Of a stretch of 64,000 nt of DNA, positions 40,751 through 61,491 are shown piece after piece. Under the pieces are notes generated by a model that was not told the DNA's origin, did no database searches, and worked only from the letters and a program-made list of their open reading frames with translations. The number at the start of each line of letters is the position of its first letter. The first letter of the stretch is position 1. This stretch comes from a bacterium (lineage in GTDB: Bacteria > Vulcanimicrobiota > JAZDOK01): the NCBI GenBank assembly GCA_043798715.1, contig JAZDOK010000004.1:114537-178536 (forward strand). The letters are read 5' to 3'. The position numbers and the translations under genes were made by a program.

Positions 40751-40765
40751 TTCACCTCTATTTCT

Positions 40766-41302: not shown

Positions 41303-41618
<316 letters not shown>

Positions 41619-41646
<28 letters not shown>

Positions 41647-41712
41647 GCTTTGTCGTAAAGGGCTCTGACCCTTTTCCCCCTATTCTGTCAATTGTGTAGA
41701 CGTGACCCCTAT
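41619..41712. repeat. Junction repeat, modules Y-X-Z; module Y overlaps the 3' end of brnA
   Basis: Y = cagccgacgcacaggaacgcgcggctgagctttgtcgt (identical at 44517-44554). X = ctctgaccctttt. Z = tattctgtcaattgtgtagacgYgacccctat (also at 43040-43071 and 44585-44617). Confidence 0.85.
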
Positions 41713-41713
41713 G

Positions 41714-42976
41714 TCATAAGGCAAACCAGGGATAGACAATCGTTCCAGCTCTTTTAAAGGACGAATCCCCGCCATACACAAGAGCGGCCGGATCGTTGGA
41801 GCGGCTGGAGAGATTCCGCCAGTCATTCAATCCTTTGAAAAAGTCGCCCGCAATGGTCTGAGCTGATTTAACCTCCACCGGAGTCAGCCGGCCACCCTGT
41901 TCGACGAGGAGATCCACCTCCCGTCCGGATGTGTCACGCCAGAAACTCAGGGCAGGCAGCTCGCCCCGGTTCAAGAAGTTCTTGTAGAATTCGGATAAGA
42001 CGTAACTTTCAAAAATGCCGCCCTTCATCGCGTGATGGTGAAGCTCCTCCGGGAATCGAATCTGAAGAAGGAAGCACAAAAGACCGGTGTCCAGGAAATA
42101 AAGCTTCGGGCTTTTGATAAGGCGTTTCCCGAAGTTCTGGTGATGAGGTCTGAGAAGCACGATCAGAAAGCTGGCCTCCAGAACCGAAATCCAGCGTCTT
42201 GCGGTCGTATGCGTGATGCCGCAGTCTGAGGCCAGGGACGACAAATTTAACAGCTGGGCGTTCCGACCGGCACAGAGCCGGACAAATCGGCCGAAGGACT
42301 CCAGGTCGCCCATCTTCAAAACATTCCGGACGTCCCGCTCCAGGTAAGTCTGGTAATAATTTCCCAGCCAGTCCTGCGGGGGTAGCCTTTTGTCGTGAAT
42401 CCGTGGATAAAAACCTGTAAAAAGGACTTCTGCCAGTTTTTTTCCCGGTGCTCCGGTACCCTGATAAGTTTTTCTTCCCAGTTCCGAAAGAGTAAAAGGC
42501 TTATGACCGGACAGTTCGGCATGGGAAAACGGCAAAAGGTGCAGAACGGCACATCGTCCGGCCAGAGATTGGGAAATGCCCTGGAGAAGGAGAAAATTAT
42601 GCGAGCCTGTCAGGATGAATTGTCCCGCTTTATTCTGTTCATCCACCATGACTTGAATATAGGAAAACAAGTCCGGGACGCGCTGGGCTTCGTCCAGAAT
42701 AACCGGGCCTTCAAACTGCGAGAGAAACCCCCGGGGATCTTCCATAGCAAAAGCGCGTTGATCGGGAAGCTCTAGAGTTGAGTAGGCGTAATCTTTAAAT
42801 ACGGCTCTGACCAGGGTGGTTTTGCCCGATTGACGCGGCCCCGTGACTGTTACGACCGGATATCGGCCGGCGGCCTCCTTGAGTTTTTTCGCCAGGGTTC
42901 GAGGAATCATGGCCGTACCTCTTTTGCTATTTGAATATCCAATATTCAATTTACATGATATCTCGAATTTTGTCAA
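41714..42976 (-). CDS. AAA+ ATPase with a C-terminal DUF4143 domain (COG1373-type)
   Basis: Walker A GPRQSGKTT, Walker B VILDEAQ, and a C-terminal DUF4143-like region. Confidence 0.75.
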   Translation of the reverse strand: MTKFEISCKLNIGYSNSKRGTAMIPRTLAKKLKEAAGRYPVVTVTGPRQSGKTTLVRAVFKDYAYSTLELPDQRAFAMEDPRGFLSQFEGPVILDEAQRVPDLFSYIQVMVDEQNKAGQFILTGSHNFLLLQGISQSLAGRCAVLHLLPFSHAELSGHKPFTLSELGRKTYQGTGAPGKKLAEVLFTGFYPRIHDKRLPPQDWLGNYYQTYLERDVRNVLKMGDLESFGRFVRLCAGRNAQLLNLSSLASDCGITHTTARRWISVLEASFLIVLLRPHHQNFGKRLIKSPKLYFLDTGLLCFLLQIRFPEELHHHAMKGGIFESYVLSEFYKNFLNRGELPALSFWRDTSGREVDLLVEQGGRLTPVEVKSAQTIAGDFFKGLNDWRNLSSRSNDPAALVYGGDSSFKRAGTIVYPWFAL

Positions 42977-42999
42977 CCGATGGAGGCAGACTTCTCCTC

Positions 43000-43093
43000 A
43001 AGGGCAGCCTGCCCCCTTTATTCTCGGCATCTTTTCCCCTATTCTGTCAATTGTGTAGACGCGACCCCTATATCCTTCGACCCCTATATCCTT
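43000..43093. repeat. Junction repeat, diverged X plus Z, followed by a tandem 16-bp duplication (cgacccctatatcctt, twice)
   Basis: Module Z lies at 43040-43071; the 16-mer copies are at 43062-43077 and 43078-43093. Confidence 0.8.
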
Positions 43094-43361
43094 GCCTCCA
43101 GGAAAATGATTGTTTCTTTCCCGGATAGATCCGACATAAAAAGTATTTTTCCTACTGAATTGGAAAACTATTTTCTGACAGCCTGTGCCCCCAATGTCAC
43201 CCGTTCGCCCTGAGCCTGTCGAAGGGCAAGACCCATCCGTTCATGGTTCGACAAGCTCACCACGAACGGAAACGAAGCGAGAAGGAGAAAGGAGACGCTT
43301 GTTTTTTTCAGGGAATTCGTGACTGGCACAAATTATTCAATTTCCATTTTCGGACAGCCTG

Positions 43362-44348
43362 TCAAGGCTTGTCCTTCGTTGGCGGCGGCAATTGCTTGAC
43401 GGCGCGGTCGAAGTCGGATTCGAGGTGCCGATCCTCGATATTGCGAAACTCGACGAACTCGCGTTCCGAGTGGGTTCGGGCCAACTCGGCCGACACTTTA
43501 CCGGCGTTCTGTAATATTTCCCGGTCGTTCAATGTCAAAAAACCCTCCAGCTTCGTGATCCAATCGTTCATCGTCATGGCTATCCGACGCTCGGCCTGGG
43601 ACTCGGCAAAGATGAGATACTGTTCGACGAGGTTATTGAGCGCACGCAGCTCTTCTTCATTTAAATAGTTTTTTGCAATGGCGACGTCCGATTTGCGGAT
43701 ACGCGCCCCCTCCCAGTTAGTGAGACCCATGTTCGGCATTCTGCTGTCAGCGCGGAACAAGATAACCTCGACGGCGGTCTGGCCGTGAATAGCGTAATGC
43801 ACCTTGTTTTGCACCGTAGCGAAGAACTCCTGGGTGAGCGGGTGGTCCTTGTCGTAGTCTATGCTCGTGGCGTAGATGTCTGTGATTTTCTGGTAAAAAC
43901 GCCGCTCGCTCGTGCGGATATCCTGGATGCGCCGGGTGAGCTCCTCGAAGTAGTCGTTTCCTGCTTTCGGGTTTTTCAGACGCTCGTCATCCAGCACAAA
44001 GCCCTTGATGATGTACTCTTTAAGCTTGTCTGCGGCCCACTGACGGAAGCGCACGGCCACCGGGCTACGCACCCTGAAACCCAGGGCCAGGACCATGTCG
44101 AGGTTGTAATGAGCCACCTCGTACTGTTTACCGTCTGCGGCAGTTGTTCGGAAAAACCGAACAACTGAATCTTCCTCCAGTTCTTCGTCCTCAAAGATGT
44201 GTTTGATGTGTTCACTGATGGTGCCCTTGGCCTTGCCGAACAACTCCACGAGCTGCTTCTGGTTGAGCCAGATGTTCCGGTCTTCGAGGCGAACGTCGAG
44301 TTTCGTGCGGCCGTCCTCGCTCTGGTAGATGAGAATCTGGTTCATCAC
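43362..44348 (-). CDS. RhuM-family protein (virulence/defence-associated, DNA-binding)
   Basis: N-terminus IYQSEDGRTKLDVRLEDRNIWLNQKQLVELFGK...VRFRQWA; overall pattern like rhuM. Confidence 0.7.
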   Translation of the reverse strand: MMNQILIYQSEDGRTKLDVRLEDRNIWLNQKQLVELFGKAKGTISEHIKHIFEDEELEEDSVVRFFRTTAADGKQYEVAHYNLDMVLALGFRVRSPVAVRFRQWAADKLKEYIIKGFVLDDERLKNPKAGNDYFEELTRRIQDIRTSERRFYQKITDIYATSIDYDKDHPLTQEFFATVQNKVHYAIHGQTAVEVILFRADSRMPNMGLTNWEGARIRKSDVAIAKNYLNEEELRALNNLVEQYLIFAESQAERRIAMTMNDWITKLEGFLTLNDREILQNAGKVSAELARTHSEREFVEFRNIEDRHLESDFDRAVKQLPPPTKDKP

Positions 44349-44460
44349 AGGCTCCTCACGTTTAGTAGCCCGTGCTGGCTGAGGATGGCGGCAAGGTTGG
44401 TCTTGGCGACATCATCGGCAAAGGCGCTGTCACGGAAGACGCAAGAGAAAAGAGGACAGA

Positions 44461-44617
44461 GCCTTTTTAAGCACGGCAGATTCTAATTCGTCGTAAAGGG
44501 CACTGTCCCCTTTATCCCAGCCGACGCACAGGAACGCGCGGCTGAGCTTTGTCGTTCGTCGTAAGGGGCTCTGACCCTTTTATCCTTATTCTGTCAATTG
44601 TGTAGACGCGACCCCTA
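44461..44617. repeat. Most complete junction repeat: modules W-X-Y-(tail of W)-X-Z
   Basis: Contains a copy of the 3' end of brnA (module Y) detached from any brnA gene. Confidence 0.85.
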
Positions 44618-44744
44618 TGACCTTGAATTTTCCCTCCCAGATCATCTCCTTAAAAAAAACATGAAGTCGAGCATCCCGACTGATTGTACCACACCCACTG
44701 TGACAAAGACTGTCATTGTGATTTCAGATGACGATTTTTTTATA

Positions 44745-44784
44745 TAATCCCCGGCATAAACCTGATTGCCTCGCCCATTGCCAA
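44745..44784. repeat. Left imperfect direct repeat flanking the NERD cassette
   Basis: aatccccggcataaacctgattgcctcgcccattgccaag, compared with 45784-45833 aatccccggcatcgacctgatttaccctcccccttgccag. Confidence 0.75.
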
Positions 44785-44965
44785 GGAAGTCCAATTGAAG
44801 CCCCTCTACTGTCACCAATAGAAAATCATCTCAATTTCGCCGTTTTCCCCTGCATGCAAGAAAAAAGACCTGTCACAGACCGCCTTTCCCCCGCCAAAAA
44901 GGTGTGGCGGCCACTTTTGTATAATTGAAACCAATAAAAATTTTTCCAAAAAACGGAGTGAGTGT

Positions 44966-45766
44966 ATGCAAGAGGCTAAAAAAAGAACAGGTAAAAAATC
45001 TCCCATAAAAAAAGCACCTCTTCGTCTTCCCGGACAGTTCTTGGATGAGAAGATAAAAGATATAAAGTATGACATGCTATGGAATGTCTTTGTGTGCCTT
45101 ATGTATTTAACTTCGCTTGTAATCGCATGGCTGTTCTACTTGTTCCCAAAGACATTTTTGTTGCCTCTTTTACTTCTACTGACCCTTGTTTCTGTACTTG
45201 TTTTTATTTTCTATGGGACAAGAATTTCTAAACAATGGAAGGAAATAGACAACCACAAGCTCGGCCGCGTCGGGGAAATAGAAGTCGGGCAGACCTTGGA
45301 AAAATTACGAGAGCAGGGCTGCCGGATCTTTCACGACATTCAGATGGGAAATTATAATATCGATCATGTCGTTTTATCTACTAAGGGGGTTTTCGTGATT
45401 GAGACGAAGACGCGAAGAAAACCGGCAGAAGGCCGCACTGAGATTGTTTATGAGGGTGATTTGATTAGAATAAACGGTTCGCCGAATAAAACTGACATTG
45501 AGCAGGCAAAAAGTCAGGCCTGCGGTTTTCATAAATTTTTCAAGCTAATTACAGGGAATTCTTATTTTGTAAGGCCTGTTATTGTGTATCCTGGTTGGTA
45601 TGTGACTTCTTCTTTTGATCCCGAGAAAAGCGATATGTGGGTGCTAAACCCCGATCAACTCAGTCAAAAGATCGCAGCTCAACCTGAAGTCATCAAACCC
45701 AAGGAACTGGAGACTATTGCAAATCAATTGGAATACCATATACGCGAAAAATCTGATTTAAAGTAG
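44966..45766 (+). CDS. NERD-domain (nuclease-related) protein with N-terminal TM helices
   Basis: GRVGEIEVGQTLEKLREQGCRIFHDIQMGNYNIDHVVLSTKGVFVIETKT is the NERD core. GC content is about 38% against roughly 60% for the surrounding genome. Confidence 0.75.
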   Translation: MQEAKKRTGKKSPIKKAPLRLPGQFLDEKIKDIKYDMLWNVFVCLMYLTSLVIAWLFYLFPKTFLLPLLLLLTLVSVLVFIFYGTRISKQWKEIDNHKLGRVGEIEVGQTLEKLREQGCRIFHDIQMGNYNIDHVVLSTKGVFVIETKTRRKPAEGRTEIVYEGDLIRINGSPNKTDIEQAKSQACGFHKFFKLITGNSYFVRPVIVYPGWYVTSSFDPEKSDMWVLNPDQLSQKIAAQPEVIKPKELETIANQLEYHIREKSDLK

Positions 45767-45783
45767 ATACATTTTTTAAATAA

Positions 45784-45833
45784 AATCCCCGGCATCGACC
45801 TGATTTACCCTCCCCCTTGCCAGAACAGGAGTA
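45784..45833. repeat. Right imperfect direct repeat flanking the NERD cassette
   Basis: See 44745-44784. Confidence 0.75.
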
Positions 45834-46042
45834 TCGACGGGAGAGGTTGTGAGCCACAGAGCGAAAGCGCTGGATCGAAGAAGGTTAAAGTGAAGGCTTC
45901 GTAGAGATAACGGCTCTGGGTAGAGCAGACCTTTAGGTCTGCAAAACTAGCTTCATGCCCCCGCACAGTCATCGTCCTAATCATGGCGTCCACCGGTACT
46001 TTTTCATCCGGCTTCTCGGCTTTTCAGGGAAGTTCGAACCCT

Positions 46043-46249
46043 TTATTTCAAGACCTCCCACCGCCCGCCCTTGTCGGGGCCGATTCGTTTCAAGCAGCCG
46101 TGCATCTTGCACATGGCGATGACACGGTTTGTCCCACGGCCCCAGACCTCCACCGCTCCGGCACGGTGGAAGAGGTCGGCTGTAGTGGGGTTTCGCAGAA
46201 GGTCTGTAAGTTGCCTTGATTCAGTGAAATTTCGCATGTTATTCCCCAT
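46043..46249 (-). pseudogene. C-terminal fragment of an AlbA_2/HATPase_c_4-type putative transcriptional regulator
   Basis: ADLFHRAGAVEVWGRGTNRVIAMCKMHG resembles the conserved C-terminus FRRxGLIERWGSGIxRI of that family; the ORF is only 68 aa. Confidence 0.4.
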
Positions 46250-46481
46250 AGTACCTATTTTATTACTCGTTTAATCAGGTATTACCTGTTTCCCTTTTTC
46301 CATGTTGCATCCCGTCCTCGTCCAAGGCACTCCACCCTTTTGACACGGTTCTCTTTTTTCAGCACTTTGCGTATCATATCAACGCTCCCCCCTCTGCCTA
46401 ATTCTTCAAATAATGAGATGAAACCGGCCATAATTCCTCCGCTTGGGAGGAAAGATGAGGCGTTTACCTAATTATTGACAG

Positions 46482-47697: not shown

Positions 47698-48240
47698 TTG
47701 GAGGACTTTACCGAGAATAATCCAATAGATAGAATGATGATTTGCCTGACATGCGGATATTTCAACGAAGGAACGACAGGAAACTGCGTGAAGTGCGGAT
47801 CCCCTCTCATCCCGTTTCCGGCAGCCCCCCCTTTTCTGGAGGGACAGCTTTCCACCCTGAAAGATTCGGCCCGGAATGTCATCCTGGGGCAGATCTCAAT
47901 TGAAGATTTTGAAGCAGTGCTGGAACGCTTTGAAAATCGCCTGAACGAAGTCTCATCCTTTCTTGAAACCCTGGCTGTTCCGGAGGAAATGAGACTTGAT
48001 CTTCTTCCGGAGCTGACCGTGGGCTCCGAAGGGCTCCGCCTGCACCAGGAAGCTCTCCAGGCCATGCGGGACTACGTCTCTTCCCGGAGCCTGAGAGTCC
48101 TTCAGGAAGGCCTTGAAAAAGCCGAGAAAGCCAATGAAAAAATCAACGAAGCCATGCAGTTGAACTGGAAATCATTCCTCAACTGGAAGGAAATGACGGA
48201 AGACCTCCTGACACAGTACCTGCCGGGGTCACCTACTTGA
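47698..48240 (+). CDS. Zinc-ribbon protein with a C-terminal helical domain, paralog A
   Basis: CLTCGYFNEGTTGNCVKCG plus a C-terminal ...KINEAMQLN; paralog of 49112-49618. Confidence 0.4.
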   Translation: MEDFTENNPIDRMMICLTCGYFNEGTTGNCVKCGSPLIPFPAAPPFLEGQLSTLKDSARNVILGQISIEDFEAVLERFENRLNEVSSFLETLAVPEEMRLDLLPELTVGSEGLRLHQEALQAMRDYVSSRSLRVLQEGLEKAEKANEKINEAMQLNWKSFLNWKEMTEDLLTQYLPGSPT

Positions 48241-49027
48241 TAAATATATCCATCGGCTTAAAAAGATTATCCTGGAGACCGACGTTGATCGCCACCGCCC
48301 GATATACAACGACCTTTTCCATAACCTCGTTCTCATAATATTCAATCACAAAAGGCATCCAGCGCCCGTCCTTCAACTGGATGATTTCCTTATAGAGAAC
48401 CCGCAAAAAAGCCGGCTTGTCCTTCTCCGAGGAGCTTCTGGAGACTCTCCGCATCTCCAGTTTCAAGGGGACCCAGCGGCTCCGGTCGATCCATACTTTT
48501 ACCATCTGCTCCGGGGAGGCCGGATTTACGATTCCTACGACGTCCGTCGGAATCCCCCCAACCGACTCCTTGCCTAAAATGACATACTCCTGGTTGAGGT
48601 CCTGCTGGTAAATCTGCAGATTAAAGGGGAGCATGAGGCTGGCGCTTGGCTCATCCGGCCCCTTTTTGACGGGGTATTGCCCGGCAGAGACATACATCCA
48701 GCGATTGATTCCGTCCCGGATGATGATCGCCTGCTTTCCATCCGTAGGATCGCCTGGAGCAATAGTTACGCTATCAACTCTTAACTTGTTCGGCTTTTTA
48801 AAAAAAATCGTATCCCTCGAGGCCGGTTGAAGAACGCCGGAAGAACCGGAATTAGTCAGAGTCGTGCGGCTGACATCCAACTCTATCATGATGTCCTGGA
48901 TGGGAAGCTGGTTTGAGGTGACAAAGAGATGATCCACCAGTTGTCTGGCGGATGTTTCCGACGCCAGAACTCCTGTCGAGGAAACCAGAACCAGTATTAT
49001 GACCGTGCAGATGATTTTTCTTGTCAA
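48233..49027 (-). CDS. LolA-like beta-barrel lipoprotein-sorting-fold protein; fold assignment is tentative
   Basis: Signal peptide, then a beta-rich sequence of about 240 aa; the family assignment is weak. Confidence 0.4.
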   Translation of the reverse strand: MTRKIICTVIILVLVSSTGVLASETSARQLVDHLFVTSNQLPIQDIMIELDVSRTTLTNSGSSGVLQPASRDTIFFKKPNKLRVDSVTIAPGDPTDGKQAIIIRDGINRWMYVSAGQYPVKKGPDEPSASLMLPFNLQIYQQDLNQEYVILGKESVGGIPTDVVGIVNPASPEQMVKVWIDRSRWVPLKLEMRRVSRSSSEKDKPAFLRVLYKEIIQLKDGRWMPFVIEYYENEVMEKVVVYRAVAINVGLQDNLFKPMDIFIK

Positions 49028-49111
49028 TTTATTCCCTCTTTCCTTCCAGCAGGAAAATATTGCATTTTCGCGAATATTATGTTACATTGAGTCATAAAGG
49101 AGGTCAGCATC

Positions 49112-49618
49112 TTGATCTGTATCAAGTGCGGCGGTAGCAATCCGGACAGCGTCAACTACTGTGAGAGCTGCGGAGCCGCTCTTCCAAAGATGCCCCAGTC
49201 TCACGTGGCTCCTCCCCAGCAGGTGAACGAGCGGTACAACCAGTTGCGCGATGCGGGGGAAAAGGTAATCAACGGCGAGTGGACCACCGAAGAATTTATT
49301 TCTTTCCTGAACGGAATTTCCTCTGTTCTGGCCCAGAAGGAACATGAGATCAAAGAGATTCTGGAAACCGAAATACCACAGGAGGCCTACTCTGACTTTG
49401 AAGACGAACTGAACGTAGGCTTCAGCGGCATTGATTCCTATAACCAGGGAATTGTGGAAATGCTTTATTATGGTGAAGATCAGGACCCGGCCCACATTGA
49501 TGCCGGCTTGAACATGATCAAGGACGGAAACGAATTGATCAACGAGGCGATGCGCATTAACCGGGACAACCGCCGCAAGCTGGAAGAAATGTATATAGAC
49601 ACTTCGACGTTCCTGTGA
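49112..49618 (+). CDS. Zinc-ribbon protein with a C-terminal helical domain, paralog B
   Basis: CIKCGGSNPDSVNYCESCG plus ...LINEAMRIN; aligns with paralog A over the full length. Confidence 0.4.
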   Translation: MICIKCGGSNPDSVNYCESCGAALPKMPQSHVAPPQQVNERYNQLRDAGEKVINGEWTTEEFISFLNGISSVLAQKEHEIKEILETEIPQEAYSDFEDELNVGFSGIDSYNQGIVEMLYYGEDQDPAHIDAGLNMIKDGNELINEAMRINRDNRRKLEEMYIDTSTFL

Positions 49619-49724
49619 TTTTTCTGCGTTCCTGAAGTACACGGTTGGCTCCTGATTCTTGGAATAAAGCCTCCAGACATTGCCTGGAGGCTTATTGTTT
49701 CGCGAAAAAAACTACCTGTCCCGT

Positions 49725-50372
49725 TTAGTCACCCTTGGCAAGCTTGTCCCACATTTCGAAGACCTTGTTCTGCACGGCCACCCGGTTGGCATAGGCTTCC
49801 TGCCATATTTTGAAGATCTCATTCTGGGTGTCCTGCATGATTTTCCAGACATTGGCCCACCATTTTGACTGATCGGCCTTCATCTGCCACCAGACGCTCA
49901 TGGCGTTATTGACGTCTTCCTGGTGAGCCTTGGCCTTGTTGGCGGCATCCGTCGCAGAGGTAGTACCCACCGGCGCCGCTCCTCCGTCCGCCGGTTCAGC
50001 AGAGGGGCTGCCGGCTGCGGGCGGCTGGGTGCCCGTTGCAGGAGGCTTCTGAGACGGCGCGCCCGGTGCGGTCGGAACCTTATCCTGTGGCGGCTTTGCG
50101 GCGGGAGTCTCTTCCTTCGGAGTTTTTGTTTCCTGAGGAGCCGCGCCCTTGGCCCCCTTGACCTTCTGCATGGCCAGGTTCTGCAGAAGACCCGTCTGAA
50201 GACCGGCTCCCTGAGAGGCCCGGCTCAAATCAACCGAATCCATGGTCCCTTCCGACCGGGAAGGCTCCTCTTTGCTCCCGGCAACTTTTTTCTGGTCGTC
50301 CAGGGAGAGAGCTGACTGCTGTGCCAATCCGACCTGCTGGCCGGCCTTGATATTGACGTTGATATCGCTCAC
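49725..50372 (-). CDS. Protein with a Pro/Ala-rich N-terminus and a C-terminal Trp-rich helical domain paralogous to 53666-53905
   Basis: The C-terminal about 60 aa (NNAMSVWWQMKADQSKWWANVWKIMQDTQNEIFKIWQ) aligns with NNAMTVGIQMQADAQKQQMERWKILQDTQTKIFEIQQ. Confidence 0.45.
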   Translation of the reverse strand: MSDINVNIKAGQQVGLAQQSALSLDDQKKVAGSKEEPSRSEGTMDSVDLSRASQGAGLQTGLLQNLAMQKVKGAKGAAPQETKTPKEETPAAKPPQDKVPTAPGAPSQKPPATGTQPPAAGSPSAEPADGGAAPVGTTSATDAANKAKAHQEDVNNAMSVWWQMKADQSKWWANVWKIMQDTQNEIFKIWQEAYANRVAVQNKVFEMWDKLAKGD

Positions 50373-50413
50373 TAAAATGACCCCCTTCGGCTTGAAATAA
50401 CCGTTCCATGGTC

Positions 50414-50442
50414 ATTATATCAATTGTTGCTTGAAATGTAAA
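50414..50442 (-). promoter_or_regulatory. Sigma-70-like promoter TTTACA-N17-TATAAT for the 49725-50372 gene
   Basis: Read on the reverse complement as ctTTTACAtttcaagcaacaattgaTATAATg; the same architecture is found upstream of 53905. Confidence 0.55.
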
Positions 50443-50474
50443 GAATCAGGTGTTAAAAATATGTTAACATTTGG

Positions 50475-50511
50475 AAGGGTCAGACCTTTATCTTCAAAAG
50501 GTCTGACCCTT
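50475..50511. terminator. Perfect 15-bp-stem hairpin built from the tctgaccc repeat motif, downstream of the response-regulator gene
   Basis: aagggtcagaccttt-atcttca-aaaggtctgaccctt; a related motif, agtctgacccc, occurs at 50537. Confidence 0.5.
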
Positions 50512-50551
50512 ATTCTAAAACTTAATCTTCCAGAAAGTCTGACCCCTGTTC

Positions 50552-50986
50552 TCAGACCTCGTCGATCGAATAAATCGGCCTTCCATCGAAATGGGTATCC
50601 TTCTTGTCCTCTGTGTGCGCGAAAATACGCTTGACGAAGGCGATGAGCTCGGCGGGATTGAAGGGTTTAGTCAGGTAACAATCCACCCCGGATTGCCACC
50701 CCTTGAGAATATCTCCATCCTGGGCCTTCGCGGTCAGCATGATGATCGGTATGTCCGCGGTCTCCGGGTTGGATTTCAATTCCTTCAGCGTCTGAAAGCC
50801 GTCTTTTCTGGGCATCATGATGTCCAGGACGATAAGGTCCGGCCTCTGGACGGCGACTTTCTTCAGACATTCCACTCCGTCATAGGCGCAGTCCACCTCG
50901 TACCCCAGCTTCATCAGATTGATCTGGATAAGCCGAACGATATTTTTATTGTCGTCCACCGCCAATATTTTTCTCTTTCCTGCCAT
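50552..50986 (-). CDS. Single-domain response regulator (CheY-like receiver)
   Basis: ILAVDD...D55 (LIVLDIMMP)...LTAK acidic pocket and conserved Lys. Confidence 0.85.
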   Translation of the reverse strand: MAGKRKILAVDDNKNIVRLIQINLMKLGYEVDCAYDGVECLKKVAVQRPDLIVLDIMMPRKDGFQTLKELKSNPETADIPIIMLTAKAQDGDILKGWQSGVDCYLTKPFNPAELIAFVKRIFAHTEDKKDTHFDGRPIYSIDEV

Positions 50987-51010
50987 TAGATTAATCCTCC
51001 TTTAGTCGCT

Positions 51011-52756
51011 TCAACTGGATGATTCTTCTTCACTGCTTTCGGGGGTTTCATACTTTATGGGGAGAGTAAAGTTGAATGTGGAGCCGAAACCGGGCTGGCT
51101 CTCCACCCAGATCCTGCCCTTATGGGATTCCACCAGATTTTTTACTATGAAGAGGCCTATGCCGGCCCCCTCGGTCATCCTGGTATCCTCGGTATTGACC
51201 CGATGGAACTTGTCGAATATTTTGTCCATATGCTCTTCGGGAATCCCCACGCCCTGATCCGTGATGGAAAAATGGACCTCGTGATGATTGGCGTAAACCT
51301 TGAGCGTTACGGTCCCGCCCTCCGGAGAATACTTGACGGCATTCCCCAGAAGATTGACGAGAATCTGGTCCACCTTGTCCTTGTCCGCAACAATGGTGGG
51401 CAGTTTGTCTTCCTCCATGTTAAGAGCGAATTCATGCATGGTGGAGGAGGACTTAATGGCCTGAAGCGAACGTTTGACCACGGGAGGAATCTGCATGGGG
51501 GCCATCTTGAGGTCCAGGCTCCTCCCGGCCTCGATGCGGGAGATCGTCAGAAGATCGGAGATAAGCCGGATCAGGCGATCGCATTCCTCATCTATGATGT
51601 GGTAGAATTCCATCCTGGAATCCTTATCAAAGGAGTCGTCCTCATCATCCAGCAGGGTGGATATGAAACCCTTGATGGAGGTCAGGGGGGTGCGCAATTC
51701 ATGGGAGGCGGTAGAGACAAACTCGGTTTTCAATTGTTCAAGGCGTTTTATTCTGGTAATATCGGTGAAGGATGCGACGACTCCGACATCAGTGGAGGAG
51801 GATTCCGGCTCCGGGACGATGTTCAGCTGAAAAGTCAGCTCCTGCGTCGAACGGGGGTTCAGAGTGAGTTCATCGTTTATGACCTCCCGCTCTCTTATGG
51901 AGCGGTTCAGGAGATCCAGGACCTTCAGCTCTTTGATCGCATCGGTGGCCCTCAGATTCCTCGGATCGCCTACCTGCACGTTCAATATTTCCCTGGCCTT
52001 CGGGTTACAGAAGAGTACTCGCCCGAAACGATCGAGGACCAGCACTCCGGTCAGCATGGACAGCAGCGTCGTCTCCAGCTCGGTCTTCCTGGCCATAAGG
52101 GTGATGAAAGTCTTGGTGTTCTGGATAATGACGGAGGCCTGCCGGGCCAGGGTACTCAGGATCTGGGTATCTTCGTCGTTGAATTCCTCGTTATAGGACT
52201 TGTTGAAAACATGGAGAACCCCGATGGTCTGGGGCGGCTCTGAAGGGCCCTTCCGAAGGAGGAGCGGCATGCTCAGGCTGGAGCGCACTCCCAGCATGTT
52301 GGCCAAGTTGGCATCCCAGAGGGGATCATTAAGGGCATCGTTCACCAGCACCGGGACCCCCTCCCGGAAGACCTTGCCGCTTACGCCGTTGTTCGGATCC
52401 ACCCGGAAGAGTCGCAGTTCCTTGTCGCCTATCCCCTTGGCCGGTTTCTGGGCGAGCAGTTGGGTTTCTTTTTCATCCGGAAGCATGAAGACGCACTTCT
52501 CCGCCTGCATGATCATGCCCACCTTGTTTACGAGCTGTTTCAGGGTGTCTTCGATCCCGGGAATCGTCTCGACCTCGGGCGAAACCTCCTGCATGGAATT
52601 ATACGCCGTGAGGCGGACTTCCATCTCCTCATGGTATTTTTCAAGCTGGGTCGCATAGGCCTGAAGACGGTGATATTCCTCGATGGAAACATTCTGAGGC
52701 TCTTTTACGCCCGCATTAGCTGCCTTGTTAAGCTCGTTTGACATCGTTATCCCCAC
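51011..52756 (-). CDS. Cytoplasmic sensor histidine kinase with a GAF domain
   Basis: H-box ASHELRTPLTSIKGF, N and G boxes (LGNAVKYS, GAGIGL); no TM segments. Confidence 0.85.
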   Translation of the reverse strand: MGITMSNELNKAANAGVKEPQNVSIEEYHRLQAYATQLEKYHEEMEVRLTAYNSMQEVSPEVETIPGIEDTLKQLVNKVGMIMQAEKCVFMLPDEKETQLLAQKPAKGIGDKELRLFRVDPNNGVSGKVFREGVPVLVNDALNDPLWDANLANMLGVRSSLSMPLLLRKGPSEPPQTIGVLHVFNKSYNEEFNDEDTQILSTLARQASVIIQNTKTFITLMARKTELETTLLSMLTGVLVLDRFGRVLFCNPKAREILNVQVGDPRNLRATDAIKELKVLDLLNRSIREREVINDELTLNPRSTQELTFQLNIVPEPESSSTDVGVVASFTDITRIKRLEQLKTEFVSTASHELRTPLTSIKGFISTLLDDEDDSFDKDSRMEFYHIIDEECDRLIRLISDLLTISRIEAGRSLDLKMAPMQIPPVVKRSLQAIKSSSTMHEFALNMEEDKLPTIVADKDKVDQILVNLLGNAVKYSPEGGTVTLKVYANHHEVHFSITDQGVGIPEEHMDKIFDKFHRVNTEDTRMTEGAGIGLFIVKNLVESHKGRIWVESQPGFGSTFNFTLPIKYETPESSEEESSS

Positions 52757-52783
52757 ACACCTTTATAATATTGTTCCCAAGTT

Positions 52784-53656
52784 CTACGTCCCGGACTTTT
52801 TTCCCTGCTTGGACGGATCGGAAAAGGAAGCAAGGGAAACCACGCTTCCTAGCTCAAGGGTAAAGGCGCCCAGATACTGGGCATCGCTCCCGCTCTGAAG
52901 AATATAGGTTTCATTCTCCTTCAGGTAATGGGGCAGAAAATGGTGGGAGCGGCCGCCCACAATTACGGAAATCCGGGGAAAAGCCCGGGCCAGCGCCATA
53001 TCCTCCTCCAGCCCAAGTTGGGAAAGAAGGATGACCACCTGGACCCCTTCATCGCTGAAATGCTGGAGGACTTCCCCAACAACACCGGCCGGCGCCTCAA
53101 GGTGGAGATTACCCGTCATTTTCACGGGGTAAGAGAGGCCGAAAATTCCGACTGACAGAGGCCCGACCTTCTTCTGCACCCACCTCAGGACAAAAGGAGG
53201 AGGCATCTTCCCCCCTGCAAAAACATTCGAACAGACAAATGGGAAAGCCGCCTTTTCCGCCCATTTCGCCATCGCCGGGAGCGGCCATCCAAAATCGCCC
53301 TCCCCGAGACCAACCGCATCATACCCGATGGCGTTCATGATCTCCACCATCGGCATCCCCTCAAAACGCTCACAGAGAGGATGCCCCCGGGACCAGTCAC
53401 CGCTGTCCACCAGAAGAGACGGCCCATCCTTCCACCGCTTTCCCTTTACCAGGGTGGAGACAAAAGGCATTCTCTCGACCTGCCCGTGAAGATCATTGGT
53501 ATAAAGGATCTGAAGGCCCGTGATATCGGGGATACCAATTTCAAATCTTTCTTCCGTTGAATCCGCCTCCCTGAAGAAGAAAGTCCCCCCGCCGCCGGCA
53601 GGGAGAACCTCGGGAATAAAAAAAGGGCGAAGGCAAAGCCCCCGCCCGAAAAACAC
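52784..53656 (-). CDS. Calcineurin-like metallophosphoesterase (5'-nucleotidase N-domain-like)
   Basis: ILYTNDLHG and GDW..GH motifs. Confidence 0.6.
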   Translation of the reverse strand: MFFGRGLCLRPFFIPEVLPAGGGGTFFFREADSTEERFEIGIPDITGLQILYTNDLHGQVERMPFVSTLVKGKRWKDGPSLLVDSGDWSRGHPLCERFEGMPMVEIMNAIGYDAVGLGEGDFGWPLPAMAKWAEKAAFPFVCSNVFAGGKMPPPFVLRWVQKKVGPLSVGIFGLSYPVKMTGNLHLEAPAGVVGEVLQHFSDEGVQVVILLSQLGLEEDMALARAFPRISVIVGGRSHHFLPHYLKENETYILQSGSDAQYLGAFTLELGSVVSLASFSDPSKQGKKSGT

Positions 53657-53665
53657 AACCTGGCA

Positions 53666-53905
53666 CTAACTCCTGATATACTCGTCCCACTTGTTGAACA
53701 TCTTGTCGGTTGTCTTTGCCTTGTTGACCGTGACATCCTGCTGAATTTCAAAGATCTTCGTCTGAGTATCCTGCAGGATTTTCCAGCGCTCCATCTGCTG
53801 CTTCTGAGCATCGGCCTGCATCTGAATGCCGACTGTCATGGCATTGTTGTAGTCATTCTGCTGGAGCTGGGTCGCTGAGAAAATGTTTGAGAGCACTCCA
53901 CCCAT
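53666..53905 (-). CDS. Small 79-aa protein paralogous to the C-terminus of 49725-50372; possibly a YjfB-like motility-associated protein
   Basis: Sits immediately downstream of the flagellar genes. SATQLQQNDYNNAMTVGIQMQADAQKQQ weakly resembles the YjfB family consensus. Confidence 0.4.
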   Translation of the reverse strand: MGGVLSNIFSATQLQQNDYNNAMTVGIQMQADAQKQQMERWKILQDTQTKIFEIQQDVTVNKAKTTDKMFNKWDEYIRS

Positions 53906-53945
53906 ACCTACACCTCCTCTCCTACTATACTATCCACTTACCTGT

Positions 53946-53974
53946 ATTATCGCACCAATCTCCTGAAATGTAAA
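53946..53974 (-). promoter_or_regulatory. Sigma-70-like promoter TTTACA-N17-GATAAT for the 53666-53905 gene
   Basis: Reverse complement reads ccTTTACAtttcaggagattggtgcGATAATac; it shares ctttacatttca with the promoter at 50414-50442. Confidence 0.5.
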
Positions 53975-54054
53975 GGGATATTTGTTAACAGAATGTAAAT
54001 TATTCGTGAATAAATTGTTAAAACCCTACTCCTTTTCCTGATGCGTTGGGGCCT

Positions 54055-54345
54055 TCAATCCGAAAAGGCTTCTCCCTCGGCGGGCGCCAGCGGATCTTCC
54101 TGTTCAGGGAAGGGAATCCCGGCCTGCTTGAGATCGTAGTAGACTTTCTCGTTGTTCTCATACATGGTAAGAATGGCCCCATCCCTGGCGGCGGTGATCA
54201 CTACCTCCAGGACTTCGAGCAGGAGCTTGGGAACGTCGGTCTCCTTCCAGTTGATGCGCTCCCGGGTCTTTTCCCAGACATCCAGGTACATCCGGTTGAA
54301 GATGCTTATCATCTCTTCAGGAGTCAGGCCCAGATGGGTTTCCAT
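54055..54345 (-). CDS. Hypothetical 96-aa protein between flhA and the YjfB-like gene
   Basis: No recognisable motif. Confidence 0.3.
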   Translation of the reverse strand: METHLGLTPEEMISIFNRMYLDVWEKTRERINWKETDVPKLLLEVLEVVITAARDGAILTMYENNEKVYYDLKQAGIPFPEQEDPLAPAEGEAFSD

Positions 54346-54405: not shown

Positions 54406-56520
54406 CTAAACCGAGAGCATCCCTGCAGACTGCACGTTCACTCTCGGAGCGATCTCGTTCCAGGACAGGACGATCAATTGAGGGAAGGAGCGCTCCGTCA
54501 GCTTCTTCACGGCCGGCCGGATCTGGGGAGCGCACAGGACAATCGGCTGAAGGCCCCGTTCGTTGAACTTTTCGACCTCTCTTCCGAGCATCGAGAGAAT
54601 CTCCTGGCCGATATTGGGGTCCAGAGTCAGGAAGCTTCCCATCTCCGTCCTCTGGATGGATTGAGAGATCACCTGCTCGATCTGGGGATCCATCGTAAGC
54701 ACGTTTATGATGCCGTCATTGTTCATGTATTCCTTGCAGATGATCCGGGAGAGAGCCACCCGGACGCACTCCGTCAGAATCTCAGGATCCTTGGTGGCGT
54801 GAACGTTGTCGGCGATCGTCTCAAGAATGGTGACCAGATCCCTGATGGAAACCCGCTCCCTTATCAGGTTCTGGAGGACCTTCTGGACGTCTCCGAGCGA
54901 AAGCGCGTCCGGAATGACCTCCTTGATGACCGCCGGGTGCGTCTTCTTGACCGTATCCACCAGGGCCTGGACCTCCTGTCTCCCAAGAAGCTCCGCCCCG
55001 TGGGAACGGACGACCTCCGTAATCTGGGTGGCGATGACGCTCACCGGATCAAAGATCATGCAGCCGAGGCGTTCGGCCTCTCCCCGTTGTTCAGGCGAGA
55101 TCCAGACCCCGGGCATGCCGTATGTCGGATCCACGGTTTTGGTGCCGCGCAGACTCCGGAGCTTATCCTCCGGGCCGATGGCCAGAAACTGATTGACCAT
55201 GACCTCCCCCGTGGCCACCTCTACTTCCTTGATCTTGACTGCGTAGGCATTGGGCTTGAGTTGGAGGTTGTCCCTGAAGCGGACCCCCGGCAGGACCAGC
55301 CCCATCTCGAGGGCTATATGGCGGCGGATGGAGGTGACCCGTTCCAGCAGTTTGGCCCCCTGGTTGGGATCCACCAGAGAAAGGAGCCCTCTGCCGACTT
55401 CGAGCGAAATGGGATCCACCTGCATCATGGTGACCACGCTCTCGGGCTTTTTGACATTATCCTGCTTCTGGGCCTCCAGCGCCTGGGAGGCCGAGGCCTC
55501 ATGTTCCTGGGTCTGCCTCTCCAGGATCGTCCCTATCCCGAATGAGAGCCCACCGAGCAGAAAGAAGGGGAGCCAGGGGAGGCTTTTCGTGAGCAGGCCG
55601 ATGGTGCCCAGAATGAACATGAAGATGGAGGCAATCTTGAGAGCCTTGGGCTGGCCGGTGACCTGGCGCACCACGTCCTGCCCCAGGTTGGCGTCAGAGG
55701 CCGCCCTGGATACCACCATGCCCATGGCAGTCGACATGAGGAAGGCCGGGAGTGTAGTCACCAGGCCGTTTCCTATCGTGAGGAGCGAATAAGTGTTCAT
55801 GGCGTCCCCCGGGGACATATGATGGAAGAGAACCCCGATGATGAGCCCACCGATGATATTGACGATCATGATGATGACGGAGGCGATGGAGTCCCCTTTG
55901 ACGAACTTTCCGGACCCGTCCATGGATCCGTAGAAATCGGCCTCCCTCTCGATCTCCTTCCGCCTCTTCTTGGCGCTTTCGGCGTCAATGAGGCCGGAGT
56001 GAAGATCCGCGTCAATGGCCATCTGTTTTCCGGGCATGGCGTCCAGGGTGAAGCGTGCCGCCACTTGAGCGATACGCTCGGCGCCCGAGGTGATAACCAT
56101 AAACTGGATGATGATGAGGATGATGAACATTATGAAGCCGACCACCAGGTTTCCCCCGACGACGAAATTTCCGAAAGCCGGGATGACCCTCCCCGCCCCG
56201 ATGGGCACTCCCAGCGCATCTTTGATGTGGCCGTGAAGAAGAATCATCCTGGTGGCCGATACGTCGAGGGAAAGGCGGAAGAGGGTGGCCACCAGGAGCA
56301 TGGTCGGAAACACGGCGAACTCCAGCGGGTTGCTGATGTAAATGGAAATAAGGATGACGACGATCGAGGCCGAGATATTCAGCACCAGGAGGACGTCCAG
56401 AACCTCCGGAGGGAGGGGCACGATCAGCATCATTATGATGCCGATGACGACCACGGCGATCCCGATGTCGGAGTATTTTATATACTTGACAAACGGGTCT
56501 CTGTTGTCGGGCATGGTCAT
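54406..56520 (-). CDS. flhA: Flagellar biosynthesis protein FlhA
   Basis: N-terminal TM helices and a conserved FHIPEP region (GDAMNTYSLLTIGNGLV...); 704 aa. Confidence 0.9.
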   Translation of the reverse strand: MTMPDNRDPFVKYIKYSDIGIAVVVIGIIMMLIVPLPPEVLDVLLVLNISASIVVILISIYISNPLEFAVFPTMLLVATLFRLSLDVSATRMILLHGHIKDALGVPIGAGRVIPAFGNFVVGGNLVVGFIMFIILIIIQFMVITSGAERIAQVAARFTLDAMPGKQMAIDADLHSGLIDAESAKKRRKEIEREADFYGSMDGSGKFVKGDSIASVIIMIVNIIGGLIIGVLFHHMSPGDAMNTYSLLTIGNGLVTTLPAFLMSTAMGMVVSRAASDANLGQDVVRQVTGQPKALKIASIFMFILGTIGLLTKSLPWLPFFLLGGLSFGIGTILERQTQEHEASASQALEAQKQDNVKKPESVVTMMQVDPISLEVGRGLLSLVDPNQGAKLLERVTSIRRHIALEMGLVLPGVRFRDNLQLKPNAYAVKIKEVEVATGEVMVNQFLAIGPEDKLRSLRGTKTVDPTYGMPGVWISPEQRGEAERLGCMIFDPVSVIATQITEVVRSHGAELLGRQEVQALVDTVKKTHPAVIKEVIPDALSLGDVQKVLQNLIRERVSIRDLVTILETIADNVHATKDPEILTECVRVALSRIICKEYMNNDGIINVLTMDPQIEQVISQSIQRTEMGSFLTLDPNIGQEILSMLGREVEKFNERGLQPIVLCAPQIRPAVKKLTERSFPQLIVLSWNEIAPRVNVQSAGMLSV

Positions 56521-56532
56521 ACTGTTATACTC

Positions 56533-57642
56533 CTAAGCCGTCCGGAAGAGGGGCTTGGCCTTCTGACGGCGGCGGCGCAGAAGCTCTCTCTTGCGTTTCA
56601 GCTTGTAAATGTACGCCAGGACCTCGGCCACCGCCTTGTAGAGCTCAGCCGGAATGGAATCCCCGATCTCACAGCCGTTGTAGAGGGCTCTGGCCAGTTC
56701 CACGTTTTCCAGGATGGGAACCTCATGGTCCTCGGCGACGAGCTTGATCTGCATGGCCATTAGACGGGCCCCCTTGGCTACGACCATGGGAGCGCCCCCG
56801 CCCGCCTGATCGTATTTGAGGGCCACTGCCAGGTGGGTGGGGTTGGTCAGCACCGCCGTCGAATTCGGCACTTCCTCCATCATCCGCGACATGGCTCCCT
56901 GGCGCATGAGCTGCCTTATCTTGCCCTTAACCTGGGGATTTCCCTCGGTGTCCTTGAACTCGTCCTTAAGCTCCTGGAAGGACATCTTCATCTGCTTTAA
57001 GTACTGCTTCTTCTGGAAGAGATAATCCACGACCGCGATTACGGCCATGGCCACGATGACCTGGAAAATAATCTTGACTACGATGGAATGAAGGAGATGG
57101 AGAGTCTGCGGGAGTTCCCATAGCACCCCGAGCCGGAGGGACATGAGGTTTGCCGCCACCACCTTGTAGCAGATATAGCCGATAATCACAAGCTTGACCA
57201 CCTGTTTGGCCAGTTCCATGAGAGACTTCATCGAGAAAATTCGCTTGAATCCCTCGATGACACTTATTTTGCTGGCCGTGGGTTTGAGAGGCTCCGTGCT
57301 GAAAATCATCTTGATCTGGCCGATATTGGCGACAATGGCCATTACAAAACCAGCCAGAAGGAGTGGCAGGAGTACCTTCATGAAATTCCAGAGCACATAG
57401 GCGGCATCGTAGAAAGTGTTCCGCTGAGAAAAATCGTAATACGGAATCAGACCGAAAAGGTGCCTGGTAAAGTCGCCGAGTGAACGACACATCCAGCTCC
57501 CCAGCGCATAGAGAACTCCCGCCGTCGCAATCAGCACGAGCGTCGAGACGATATCCTGACTCTTGAAAATCTGACCTTTTTTTCTCGCCTCCTGAAGCTT
57601 GTGTTCAGTCGGCTCCTCGGTCTTGTCGCTGTCGTCAGCCAT
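56533..57642 (-). CDS. flhB: Flagellar biosynthesis protein FlhB
   Basis: N-terminal DKTEEPTEHKLQEARKKGQ, TM helices, and the NPTH autocleavage motif. Confidence 0.9.
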   Translation of the reverse strand: MADDSDKTEEPTEHKLQEARKKGQIFKSQDIVSTLVLIATAGVLYALGSWMCRSLGDFTRHLFGLIPYYDFSQRNTFYDAAYVLWNFMKVLLPLLLAGFVMAIVANIGQIKMIFSTEPLKPTASKISVIEGFKRIFSMKSLMELAKQVVKLVIIGYICYKVVAANLMSLRLGVLWELPQTLHLLHSIVVKIIFQVIVAMAVIAVVDYLFQKKQYLKQMKMSFQELKDEFKDTEGNPQVKGKIRQLMRQGAMSRMMEEVPNSTAVLTNPTHLAVALKYDQAGGGAPMVVAKGARLMAMQIKLVAEDHEVPILENVELARALYNGCEIGDSIPAELYKAVAEVLAYIYKLKRKRELLRRRRQKAKPLFRTA

Positions 57643-60146: not shown

Positions 60147-60491
60147 TCAGCGACTCAGTATTTCCTGAATACGCACCCCGAAATTGCCGTCGATTTCCAC
60201 CACCTCGCCCCTGGCGATGAGCTTGTTGTTGACCAGAATGTCCACCGGTTCCCCGGCCTCCTTGTCCAACTCCACCACTGATCCGACGCCAAGCTTGAGA
60301 ATCTCTTTGACCAGCAGCTTGGTCCTTCCCAGTTCCGCCTGAACCAGAAGAGGGACATCCCTCAGCAGATCAATACTGCTGGGAGTAGCCTTGGCCGCCG
60401 AAGTTTCGTCCAGAGTCCCAAATTGGACCGATCTTACCTTCGGCTGATCTTCTTCCTGGTTAAAACGTCCGTCATTCTTCAAATTCTTCAT
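60147..60491 (-). CDS. fliN: Flagellar motor switch protein FliN
   Basis: C-terminus GEPVDILVNNKLIARGEVVEIDGNFGVRIQEI, the SpoA/FliN fold. Confidence 0.8.
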   Translation of the reverse strand: MKNLKNDGRFNQEEDQPKVRSVQFGTLDETSAAKATPSSIDLLRDVPLLVQAELGRTKLLVKEILKLGVGSVVELDKEAGEPVDILVNNKLIARGEVVEIDGNFGVRIQEILSR

Positions 60492-61491
60492 CCCCCTCGG
60501 TCAGCACTTTGCAAATCTGGATGCCGACTTTATTATCTTTGGTCTTTCCCGGTCTACCGAGAAATTTGGTGCGCTCGTTGACCTTCAGCCTAACGGGATC
60601 CCCTATTTGCGTGTCCAGTACCAGACAGTCTCCCGGCTCGATGTGGAGGAGATCCTCAAAAAGTACTTCCGTCCGCCCCAGTTCACAGGAAATGGGGACC
60701 CGGGCCGACTCTATTTTTCCGGCGAAGAGAGGGGAGACCGTTTGCCCGGAGGCGGCCTGACTGGTCTTGGAAAGGATAAACTGTTCGAAGCTGGCATTGG
60801 GAACGATCGCCTTGAGATGCTTGAAAGGCAGACACAGCTCAAACCTTCCCTGTGCCTGGGCGATCCTGGCTGAAAAAGGCACGATCACCATGTTTTCGCT
60901 GGAGCCGGCGACAACCACTCCCAGGGGATTCAGCCGGATCTCCACCAGCTGGGGCTTGAAATCGCGGACTTCTCTCCAGGCCTCGGAGTAGCATTCTACG
61001 AGCCGGACGATGGTCTTCTGGAGAAGAATCATCTCGATTTCCGTAAACTCCCGAATCCCCTCCGAAGTCTCGCCCTTGCCCCCCATCAGCTTGTCCAGGA
61101 GGGCAAAGGAGAGCGGGAAATCAAGAGAGAGCAGCGCCTTGGTCTCTGGGTCAATCTTGAAGACCACCATGGTCGAGGGATCGGGAAGTGAGTGCAGATA
61201 GTCGGCGTATGTCGCCACCGAAATCTGCCCCAGCTCCAGTTGGACCCTGGACTGAAGCATCGGAGCCAGCTTGGTGGTTACCGCATCGGCATACTGCTGG
61301 AATACATTATAAATAAACCTGTACTGATCGGCGTTGAGCTTATCGGCGGTGGCAAAGTCATACCGCGCGACCGAACCCTTGGCAGCCTTCATCATCTGTT
61401 CAATTTTGCCGCTCTCAGTATCCCCCAACAAGAACTTCCCCCCTTCAGAAGGTCGAAATTGAGACTCTCCATTCCCCGGCCACCTGATCAA
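60472..61491 (-). CDS. fliM: Flagellar motor switch protein FliM
   Basis: YDF...QLR, LSLDFPLSFALLDKLMGGKG and central CheC-like motifs; the true start may be at the internal MMKAAKG. Confidence 0.85.
   Translation of the reverse strand: MIRWPGNGESQFRPSEGGKFLLGDTESGKIEQMMKAAKGSVARYDFATADKLNADQYRFIYNVFQQYADAVTTKLAPMLQSRVQLELGQISVATYADYLHSLPDPSTMVVFKIDPETKALLSLDFPLSFALLDKLMGGKGETSEGIREFTEIEMILLQKTIVRLVECYSEAWREVRDFKPQLVEIRLNPLGVVVAGSSENMVIVPFSARIAQAQGRFELCLPFKHLKAIVPNASFEQFILSKTSQAASGQTVSPLFAGKIESARVPISCELGRTEVLFEDLLHIEPGDCLVLDTQIGDPVRLKVNERTKFLGRPGKTKDNKVGIQICKVLTEGDEEFEE

Follow-up and report, generated by a model that had tools for sequence, protein, structure and literature searches.

A predicted single-helix C-terminal domain in free-standing proteins beside the flagellar export genes of a Vulcanimicrobiota bacterium

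Two small genes lie just behind the flagellar gene cluster in a stretch of 64,000 nucleotides from a Vulcanimicrobiota genome (assembly GCA_043798715.1, contig JAZDOK010000004.1, positions 114,537 to 178,536; hereafter the window). They encode proteins of 79 and 215 residues, which an earlier note made from the letters alone described as paralogs with near-identical promoters and a possible role in motility. What kind of proteins are these, and why are they found next to the genes for flagellar export? Here, we have compared the two proteins with sequence, profile and structure collections, and show that both open reading frames (ORFs) belong to a large undescribed family, the common domain of which, 65–75 residues long, is predicted to be one long alpha-helix. 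The domain has no match in curated families, solved structures or the literature, and is best filed as an undescribed C-terminal cargo-type module; its free-standing version, linked to a flagellar locus, is unusual. Our tentative preference is to regard the two proteins as abundant exported cargo, possibly leaving the cell through the flagellar export apparatus, with the product of a neighbouring gene, orf96, as their chaperone or neutraliser.

The short paralog (79 residues; 53666–53905, minus strand) is preceded by a strong ribosome-binding site, AGGAGAGGAGG, and the long paralog (215 residues) lies at 49725–50372 on the same strand. BLASTP aligns residues 147–213 of the long protein (encoded at 49731–49934) with residues 12–78 of the short protein, with no gap and with 28 identities in 67 positions (42%, E = 1e-15), and a hidden Markov model (HMM) of the domain matches the long protein at E = 7e-30. 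The proposed paralogy is therefore well founded. The earlier note had also called both proteins Trp-rich, which describes the long paralog, with seven Trp in its last 61 residues, but not the short one, with two in all 79. That they were otherwise unknown is borne out, as both are unannotated.

The two proteins carry the domain in different settings. In the short paralog a variable N-terminus made of small residues is followed by the helical domain, with the core RWKILQDTQTKIFEIQQDVTVNKAKT.DKMFNKWDEYIR. The long paralog, which has five close homologs, consists of a conserved part (residues 1–75), a Pro/Ala-rich linker (residues 76–145) and the helical domain (residues 147–213). The AlphaFold2 (AF2) model of the 79-residue protein is a single continuous helix from residue 3 to 78, with a predicted local distance difference test (pLDDT) score of 80 that rises above 90 in the C-terminal half; the N-terminus is modelled with low confidence (pLDDT 58–66 over residues 1–20). 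Across 139 non-redundant members, nearly all of positions 38–62 are conserved (ERWKILQDTQTKIFEIQQDVT.NKA), and this conservation spans every face of the helix, beyond what any coiled-coil seam would cover.

How large is the family, and is it related to anything known? The short protein has more than 230 homologs at 65–100% identity, nearly all of 77–80 residues and all hypothetical, from metagenome-assembled genomes (MAGs) of Eremiobacterota/Xenobia (among them Ca. Xenobium, Ca. Bruticola, UBP9 and 'Vulcanimicrobiota'). When a profile of the domain was searched against 1.84 billion representatives, and the hits were counted as representatives of clusters at 50% identity, the family came to 450 representatives at E ≤ 1e-3, of which 217 also passed E ≤ 1e-10. 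Most are proteins of 78–1938 residues that end exactly with the domain and have unrelated N-termini. Scans of both paralogs and orf96 against Pfam, NCBIfam and PADLOC gave nothing significant, and a Pfam scan of ten relatives of intermediate length (the 'medium' proteins described below) was uninformative. The matches to PHROGs were marginal, the best of them, a 'tail assembly chaperone' at E = 0.012, being regarded as noise. Profiles of the domain, orf96 and the N-termini of the long proteins found at best CcdA (E = 0.63) and BRE1 (E = 0.043) among the sequences in the PDB, which were deemed chance matches, and Foldseek found no match in the PDB for the single-helix model. A look-up of the exact products returned no record of the window 79-residue protein or of the SLT-domain protein encoded in the window, and full-text literature searches on Xenobia flagella and on the motif strings returned nothing useful.

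The earlier note saw in the paralogs a weak similarity to YjfB-type small motility proteins, a reading to which we give very little probability. It had in its favour the small size, the Q-rich helical sequence and the adjacent flagellar locus, as members of YjfB_motility (PF14070) are themselves small, Gln-rich, helical proteins tied to motility by annotation. The HMM search contradicts it, however: at E ≤ 1 both paralogs are without any Pfam match. PF14070 is also absent from the families listed for 103 fused relatives and is not matched by ten 'long' relatives even at E ≤ 10, and the length, the conserved motifs and the domain architectures of the family differ from those of YjfB.

In other phyla the domain forms the very C-terminal end of Rhs, VgrG and PAAR proteins, of ThsB-like TIR proteins, of an autotransporter passenger and of many putative secreted proteins or lipoproteins. 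Pfam analysis of the 103 longer, fused representatives identified TIR_2 in nine and TIR in six, the TIR parts being ThsB-like. Found once each were Rhs repeats with DUF6531 and SLH, VgrG modules (Phage_base_V, Gp5_C), an autotransporter, CHAT and trypsin. In two representatives (P0166 and P0172) the domain starts a few residues past the motif that ends the Rhs core (...YDP..G.F...D..G...NLYR..GN.P....DP.G), which is the position of the cargo, and a third (P0162) is a VgrG fragment carrying the domain. A 381-residue protein from an Acidobacteriaceae MAG (locus L082) consists of PAAR, a long Gly/Ala-rich linker and the helical domain. It is encoded in an effector locus of a type VI secretion system (T6SS) with the order ClpV, VgrG, a 172-residue ORF, the PAAR protein and an FHA-DUF4123 fusion (1590–9686 of that locus). 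About 25 of 149 representatives have a hydrophobic N-terminus, which suggests a signal peptide or a membrane anchor. Given these carriers outside Xenobia (T6SS/Rhs, TIR and secreted proteins), a role in motility alone is not the best reading.

These architectures resemble those of the C-terminal ('CT') domains of polymorphic toxins. The domain sits at the extreme C-terminus after the Rhs core end, after the VgrG spike, or after PAAR and a Gly-rich linker in a T6SS locus with a DUF4123 adaptor, and the general plan is the same, with an N-terminal routing module, then a linker of low complexity and last a small module at the C-terminal end. Unlike typical CT toxins, the domain is a single predicted helix of 65–75 residues with no catalytic signature, it is far more conserved, and no cognate immunity gene was found immediately downstream. 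Most members of the family, including both proteins of the window, have no Rhs, VgrG, PAAR or other known toxin-delivery module.

Two further observations on the fusions are recorded here. At 5485–7960 of loci L011/L012 there are two neighbouring TIR genes, one of which ends in the helical domain; they are surrounded by phage-type integrases, an 8xMP membrane protein and an AAA_15/AAA_21 ATPase, a setting reminiscent of a defence island. At least 11 of 149 representatives (P0131, P0132, P0136, P0144, P0151, P0153, P0157, P0165, P0183, P0215, P0268 and others) join the helical domain to a recurrent unannotated N-terminal domain of about 100 residues, which starts with M..(L/I)VVE(I/L)SGP.F..SA. 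In the sole such locus examined, from Bryobacterales (L083, 7644–8189), the context was of a housekeeping type.

In Xenobia the domain is found in another arrangement. The window has, as the earlier note stated, flhA followed by a 96-residue ORF and then the 79-residue gene. The flagellar cluster lies upstream on the same strand and comprises genes for an SLT-domain protein, FliK, a hook-type protein, FliM, FliN, FliO, FliP, FliQ, FliR, FlhB and FlhA. It ends with the two genes of the flagellar type III export gate, flhB (56533–57642, minus strand; Pfam Bac_export_2, E = 4e-123) and flhA (54406–56520, minus strand; Pfam FHIPEP, PF00771, E = 3e-259). The 96-residue ORF (54055–54345, minus strand), which we call orf96, encodes an acidic protein with 20 D/E against 9 K/R, predicted with confidence to form a helical hairpin (pLDDT 87). 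For comparison we assembled 79 loci, mostly from Xenobia, by context look-ups and a scan of species-representative genomes, and analysed them locally with HMM and BLAST searches. In at least 27 of them the order flhB-flhA-(insert)-orf96-short(x1–3)-medium-long-ZnR-LolA-ZnR recurs, where ZnR denotes a Zn-ribbon gene, the first of the two being on the other strand, and the insert between flhA and orf96 is sometimes one or two metabolic genes. The 'medium' proteins have 130–330 residues and a divergent copy of the domain; the 'long' proteins have 215–455 residues and N-termini with the common motifs ..Q(Q/H)VG.Q..KK.. and D.V.LS..A. The free-standing short proteins, of about 78 residues, are encoded by one to four gene copies, all of which have a strong, conserved sigma-70-type promoter and a strong ribosome-binding site and end in a terminator.

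A homolog of orf96, a gene restricted to Xenobia, precedes the short genes in 31 loci, and flhA is found just upstream in 27 of the 30 loci with enough upstream sequence, the exceptions being L006, L023 and L032. The link to the motility genes drawn in the earlier note thus holds for these loci, but short genes are also found elsewhere in the same genomes, in further arrays of three or four or as single copies (L001–3, L006, L007). Some loci of the Xenobia kind are found on MAGs labelled as Burkholderiales (L035, L038, L050, L052), Chloroflexota (L040, L044), Riflebacteria (L071, L072) and Bacillota (L014, L031, L032). In L038 and L050 the gene order and the promoter are near-identical to those of Ca. 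Xenobium, and L040 has a Xenobia-type promoter before its short gene, so mis-binning or mislabelling in the public records is suggested.

Are the two genes of the window regulated together? The two promoters named in the earlier note are indeed the two best sites in a consensus scan of 47–58 kb, in which all others reached 9 of 12 positions. Both are of the sigma-70 type on the minus strand: TTTACA-17-TATAAT before the long gene (50414–50442; 11 of 12, the best in the region) and TTTACA-17-GATAAT before the short gene (53946–53974; 10 of 12). The likeness goes further than the hexamers. A 12-nt block, CTTTACATTTCA, is identical in both upstream regions, and a 36-nt direct repeat relates 50432–50467 to 53964–53999. 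At 8 nt upstream of both -35 hexamers we found TTNACA-N5-TTNACA (50451–50467 and 53983–53999), a pattern with two matches in the 64 kb where 0.04 are expected; none of 100 shuffles reached two. It reads TTAACA-N5-TTAACA before the long gene, and before the short gene it forms part of an array of half-sites at a spacing of about 11 nt (53983–54021, minus strand), TTAACA-N5-TTCACG-N5-TTTACA-N5-TTAACA. Because the repeat has the same geometry in both, the two promoters have an operator-like element in common beyond the core hexamers, and the short and long genes of the window are therefore probably co-regulated.

These elements are also found in other genomes. The operator-like repeat is present at both genes in L092, a locus 91.5% identical to the window. 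GTTAACA elements occur at -84 to -110 before the first short gene in at least ten other loci, where a short gene is the first after orf96, the stretch immediately before its -35 is enriched in GTTAACA/TTAACA by about 30-fold, and such elements are also found before long genes. In 107 unique upstream regions of short genes from other species, numbered relative to the ATG, TTTACW occurs 56 times at -90 to -61 and GATAMT 43 times at -60 to -41; the complete pattern of -35, 17-nt spacer and -10 is present in 37 of the 107, and GTGATAAT is about 100-fold over background. In some species the short gene has the canonical TTGACA-17-GATAAT. The TATAAT of the long gene is kept in at least 15 other loci, with a -35 that is weak outside the window and L092. 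With their hexamers, 17-nt spacer and conserved position, the short-gene sites are thus well described as putative sigma-70-type promoters. Late flagellar promoters recognised by sigma-28 (FliA) have a consensus of the type TAAA-N15-GCCGATAA. Compared by eye with this consensus, the present elements, with TTTACA or TTGACA at -35 and (G/T)ATAAT without GCCG at -10, are not of the sigma-28 type.

CtrA-type operators, TTAA-N7-TTAAC, are bound by regulators of the OmpR family. The repeat of the long gene reads TTAA-CATATTT-TTAAC and that of the short gene TTTA-CATTCTG-TTAAC, and in both the half-sites are 11 nt apart and abut the -35. This is a resemblance to the CtrA consensus in form only; the organism is not an alphaproteobacterium, and the response regulator encoded nearby has no DNA-binding domain.

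The short gene has a purine-rich leader of 43 nt that is unstructured (0 kcal/mol) and an intrinsic terminator at 53625–53647 (minus strand), with a 10-bp stem of which eight pairs are GC, followed by TTTTTTTATT. A second hairpin with a 10-bp stem (49667–49693), between the long gene and the Zn-ribbon gene convergent with it, is likely a bidirectional terminator. Strong hairpins are also predicted on the minus strand at 50465–50560, from the stop codon of the response regulator to the operator and promoter of the long gene (minimum free energy -37.8 kcal/mol, z = -4.8). They include a perfect 15-bp stem (AAGGGTCAGACCTTT/AAAGGTCTGACCCTT) without a U-tract and may be a terminator, an insulator or a protein-binding site. 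An Rfam scan of 49.0–54.5 kb returned nothing near the gathering thresholds.

How could one module serve on Rhs and PAAR proteins in some phyla and stand alone beside flagellar genes in Xenobia? We argue, with due caution, that the helical domain would be a delivered or exported cargo module, and that the N-terminal part of each protein would set its route. For Xenobia this means that the long protein and the free short ones would be exported in abundance, with the flagellar type III apparatus encoded next to them as the most plausible route. The hairpin of orf96 would be their chaperone or neutralising partner, packed against the long helix, and outside the cell the helix could assemble into a helical bundle or bind a conserved target. 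Known flagellar export substrates and chaperones (FlgM; flagellin-FliS, FlgK/L-FlgN, FliD-FliT) offer a partial parallel. The genes here directly follow flhA, the N-termini of the candidate substrates are variable and modelled with low confidence, and orf96, small, acidic and predicted to be all-helical, lies beside flagellar genes and beside proteins whose C-terminal helix could bind it. Unlike those systems, the present proteins have no sequence or fold match to FlgM, FliS, FlgN or FliT, their promoters are sigma-70-like rather than sigma-28-like, and their genes also occur away from flagellar loci.

Several observations weigh against exported cargo with orf96 as its partner. The short proteins have no Sec signal, and the sole basis for a flagellar signal is their variable N-terminus of small residues with low pLDDT. 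Metabolic genes lie between flhA and orf96 in L004 and L041, and the orf96-short clusters of L006, L023 and L032, together with several short arrays, lie away from flhA, so the synteny could be inherited and not functional. Neither the window nor the loci collected for comparison yielded a flagellin, and no known chaperone family, FliS, FlgN and FliT included, matches orf96 in sequence or in fold. The conservation of the domain is unusually high for a conflict protein, and T6SS/Rhs fusions account for only a few percent of its members. Nothing resembling an immunity gene comes after the Rhs gene of L005, where the next gene is on the opposite strand, or after the PAAR gene of L082, where the next gene is the FHA-DUF4123 fusion. 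A bolder form of the idea is that the flagellar type III apparatus of Xenobia doubles as a secretion system for helical effectors of the polymorphic-toxin type (short, medium and long) with orf96 as a dedicated chaperone, and that the same cargo travels through T6SS/Rhs in Acidobacteriota and other phyla. It is doubtful as a whole; if true, one effector module would have moved between unrelated secretion routes.

Three other explanations were weighed. The proteins could stay inside the cell as coiled-coil adaptors or regulators of flagellar assembly, the long one as a FlgM-like regulator coupled to secretion, and the short one with orf96 as a chaperone or partner-switch pair through which the state of the export gate is signalled. 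The conserved position right after flhA fits this, as does the operator common to both genes, which implies co-regulation. A FlgM-like size and a low-confidence N-terminus also speak for it, and the 'long' N-termini have ..IN.N.. and D.V.(L/I)S..A motifs that are reminiscent of FlgM. Yet there is no match to FlgM (PF04316) even at E ≤ 10, and a PDB search with a profile built from 20 'long' N-termini, with the same cut-off, returned nothing and so no FlgM chain. Multi-copy, very highly conserved and sigma-70-driven genes would be atypical for FlgM, and the fusions to Rhs, VgrG, PAAR, signal peptides and TIR are left unexplained. We consider this explanation unlikely and, in view of the negative HMM and profile searches, retain it as a lead. 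An equally modest probability goes to the possibility that the short and long proteins are bacteriocin-like toxins, antibacterial or anti-eukaryotic, that are released by a non-flagellar route, with orf96 as the immunity protein and the synteny with flhA incidental. In its favour, the domain takes the position of the toxin in Rhs, VgrG and PAAR proteins, and the small genes are tandem and multi-copy, with strong promoters and a small acidic partner gene beside them. Against it, orf96 is found in Xenobia alone, neither the Rhs locus nor the PAAR locus has a homolog of it or another immunity-like gene, and solitary short arrays occur with no orf96 adjacent. The helix also lacks the hydrophobicity or amphipathicity expected of an obvious membrane toxin, and it is difficult to see mere accident in a linkage to flhA that recurs in 27 of 30 informative loci.

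Less probable again is that the domain belongs to a self-assembling structural protein, such as a subunit of a filament, sheath or matrix, or serves as a generic oligomerisation module, with the fusion proteins docking through the helix. A predicted single helix of about 9 nm with conservation on all faces would be at home in a tightly packed helical polymer, the copy number is high, expression would be strong judging from the promoters, and many of the fusion partners act as oligomers or surface proteins. On the other hand, a module placed past the Rhs cleavage motif is cargo inside the Rhs cage and not an oligomeriser, and no similarity to the flagellin, needle or pilin families was found.

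Whichever of these explanations applies, the domain is found in hundreds of diverged cluster representatives from several phyla, is absent from Pfam, NCBIfam and PADLOC, and lacks relatives in the PDB. In Xenobia, an uncultured class of rumen, gut and sludge, it is encoded by a multi-copy gene that has a strong promoter, conserved between species, and is linked to the genes of the flagellar export gate. Knowing the target or the assembly of the helix would add a new type of payload to the catalogue of secreted effectors. Knowing its role would test whether the flagellum of Xenobia exports non-flagellar cargo, and would give a function to a conserved block of seven Xenobia genes. The operator-like repeat that the two genes have in common provides a handle on their regulator.

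Between the two paralogs of the window lie three genes on the minus strand (50552–53656), identified by Pfam and NCBIfam in agreement with the earlier note: a receiver-only response regulator (50552–50986; PF00072), a GAF-PAS-HisKA-HATPase histidine kinase (51011–52756; Pfam) and a SoxB/UshA-type metallophosphoesterase (52784–53656; matched by NCBIfam and by no Pfam family). That the paralogs bracket a two-component pair, as the note put it, is correct for this window. It has no general meaning, however, since this block is found in that place only in this lineage and in L092, and most other species have the third, 'medium' paralog there. Homologs of the phosphoesterase also follow the short genes in L023, L032 and L034. 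The called start of the phosphoesterase (GTG at 53656) overlaps the terminator hairpin of the short gene, which thus falls within the 5' end of the mechanically called ORF. There is no canonical in-frame start from this terminator to the DLHG metal-binding motif, and the gene call in L092 is 62 codons shorter; either the called start is doubtful or the gene is damaged.

On the other side of the long gene are a Zn-ribbon protein (49112–49618, plus strand), convergent with it, a LolA/RseB-like secreted protein (48233–49027, minus strand) and a second Zn-ribbon paralog (47698–48240, plus strand), all identified by Pfam. The two Zn-ribbon paralogs have an N-terminal zinc ribbon and a helical C-terminal part ending in ...NEAMRINRDNRRKLEEMYIDTSTFL. 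About 15 Xenobia loci have this block of three genes (47698–49618) in synteny with the long gene.

A few other genes of the window deserve mention. Of the flagellar genes, one FliN-type gene follows fliM (60147–60491 and 60472–61491, minus strand), and related Xenobia loci (L004 and L009) have two small FliMN_C genes. The hook-type protein (61520–62341; 273 residues) matched only the FlgE/F/G D1 domain, and that weakly (E = 1e-6). A candidate flagellin at 31482–33068, raised by a weak BLAST match to Bacillus subtilis Hag, proved to be a TolC-like outer-membrane efflux protein. An 8.4-kb segment at 38031–46447 is absent from L092, in which the genes for the glycosyltransferase and the RND efflux pump directly adjoin each other. 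It encodes PIN-domain, TPR, AAA_14/DUF4143 ATPase, RhuM-family and NERD-domain proteins, and looks like an inserted mobile or defence island.

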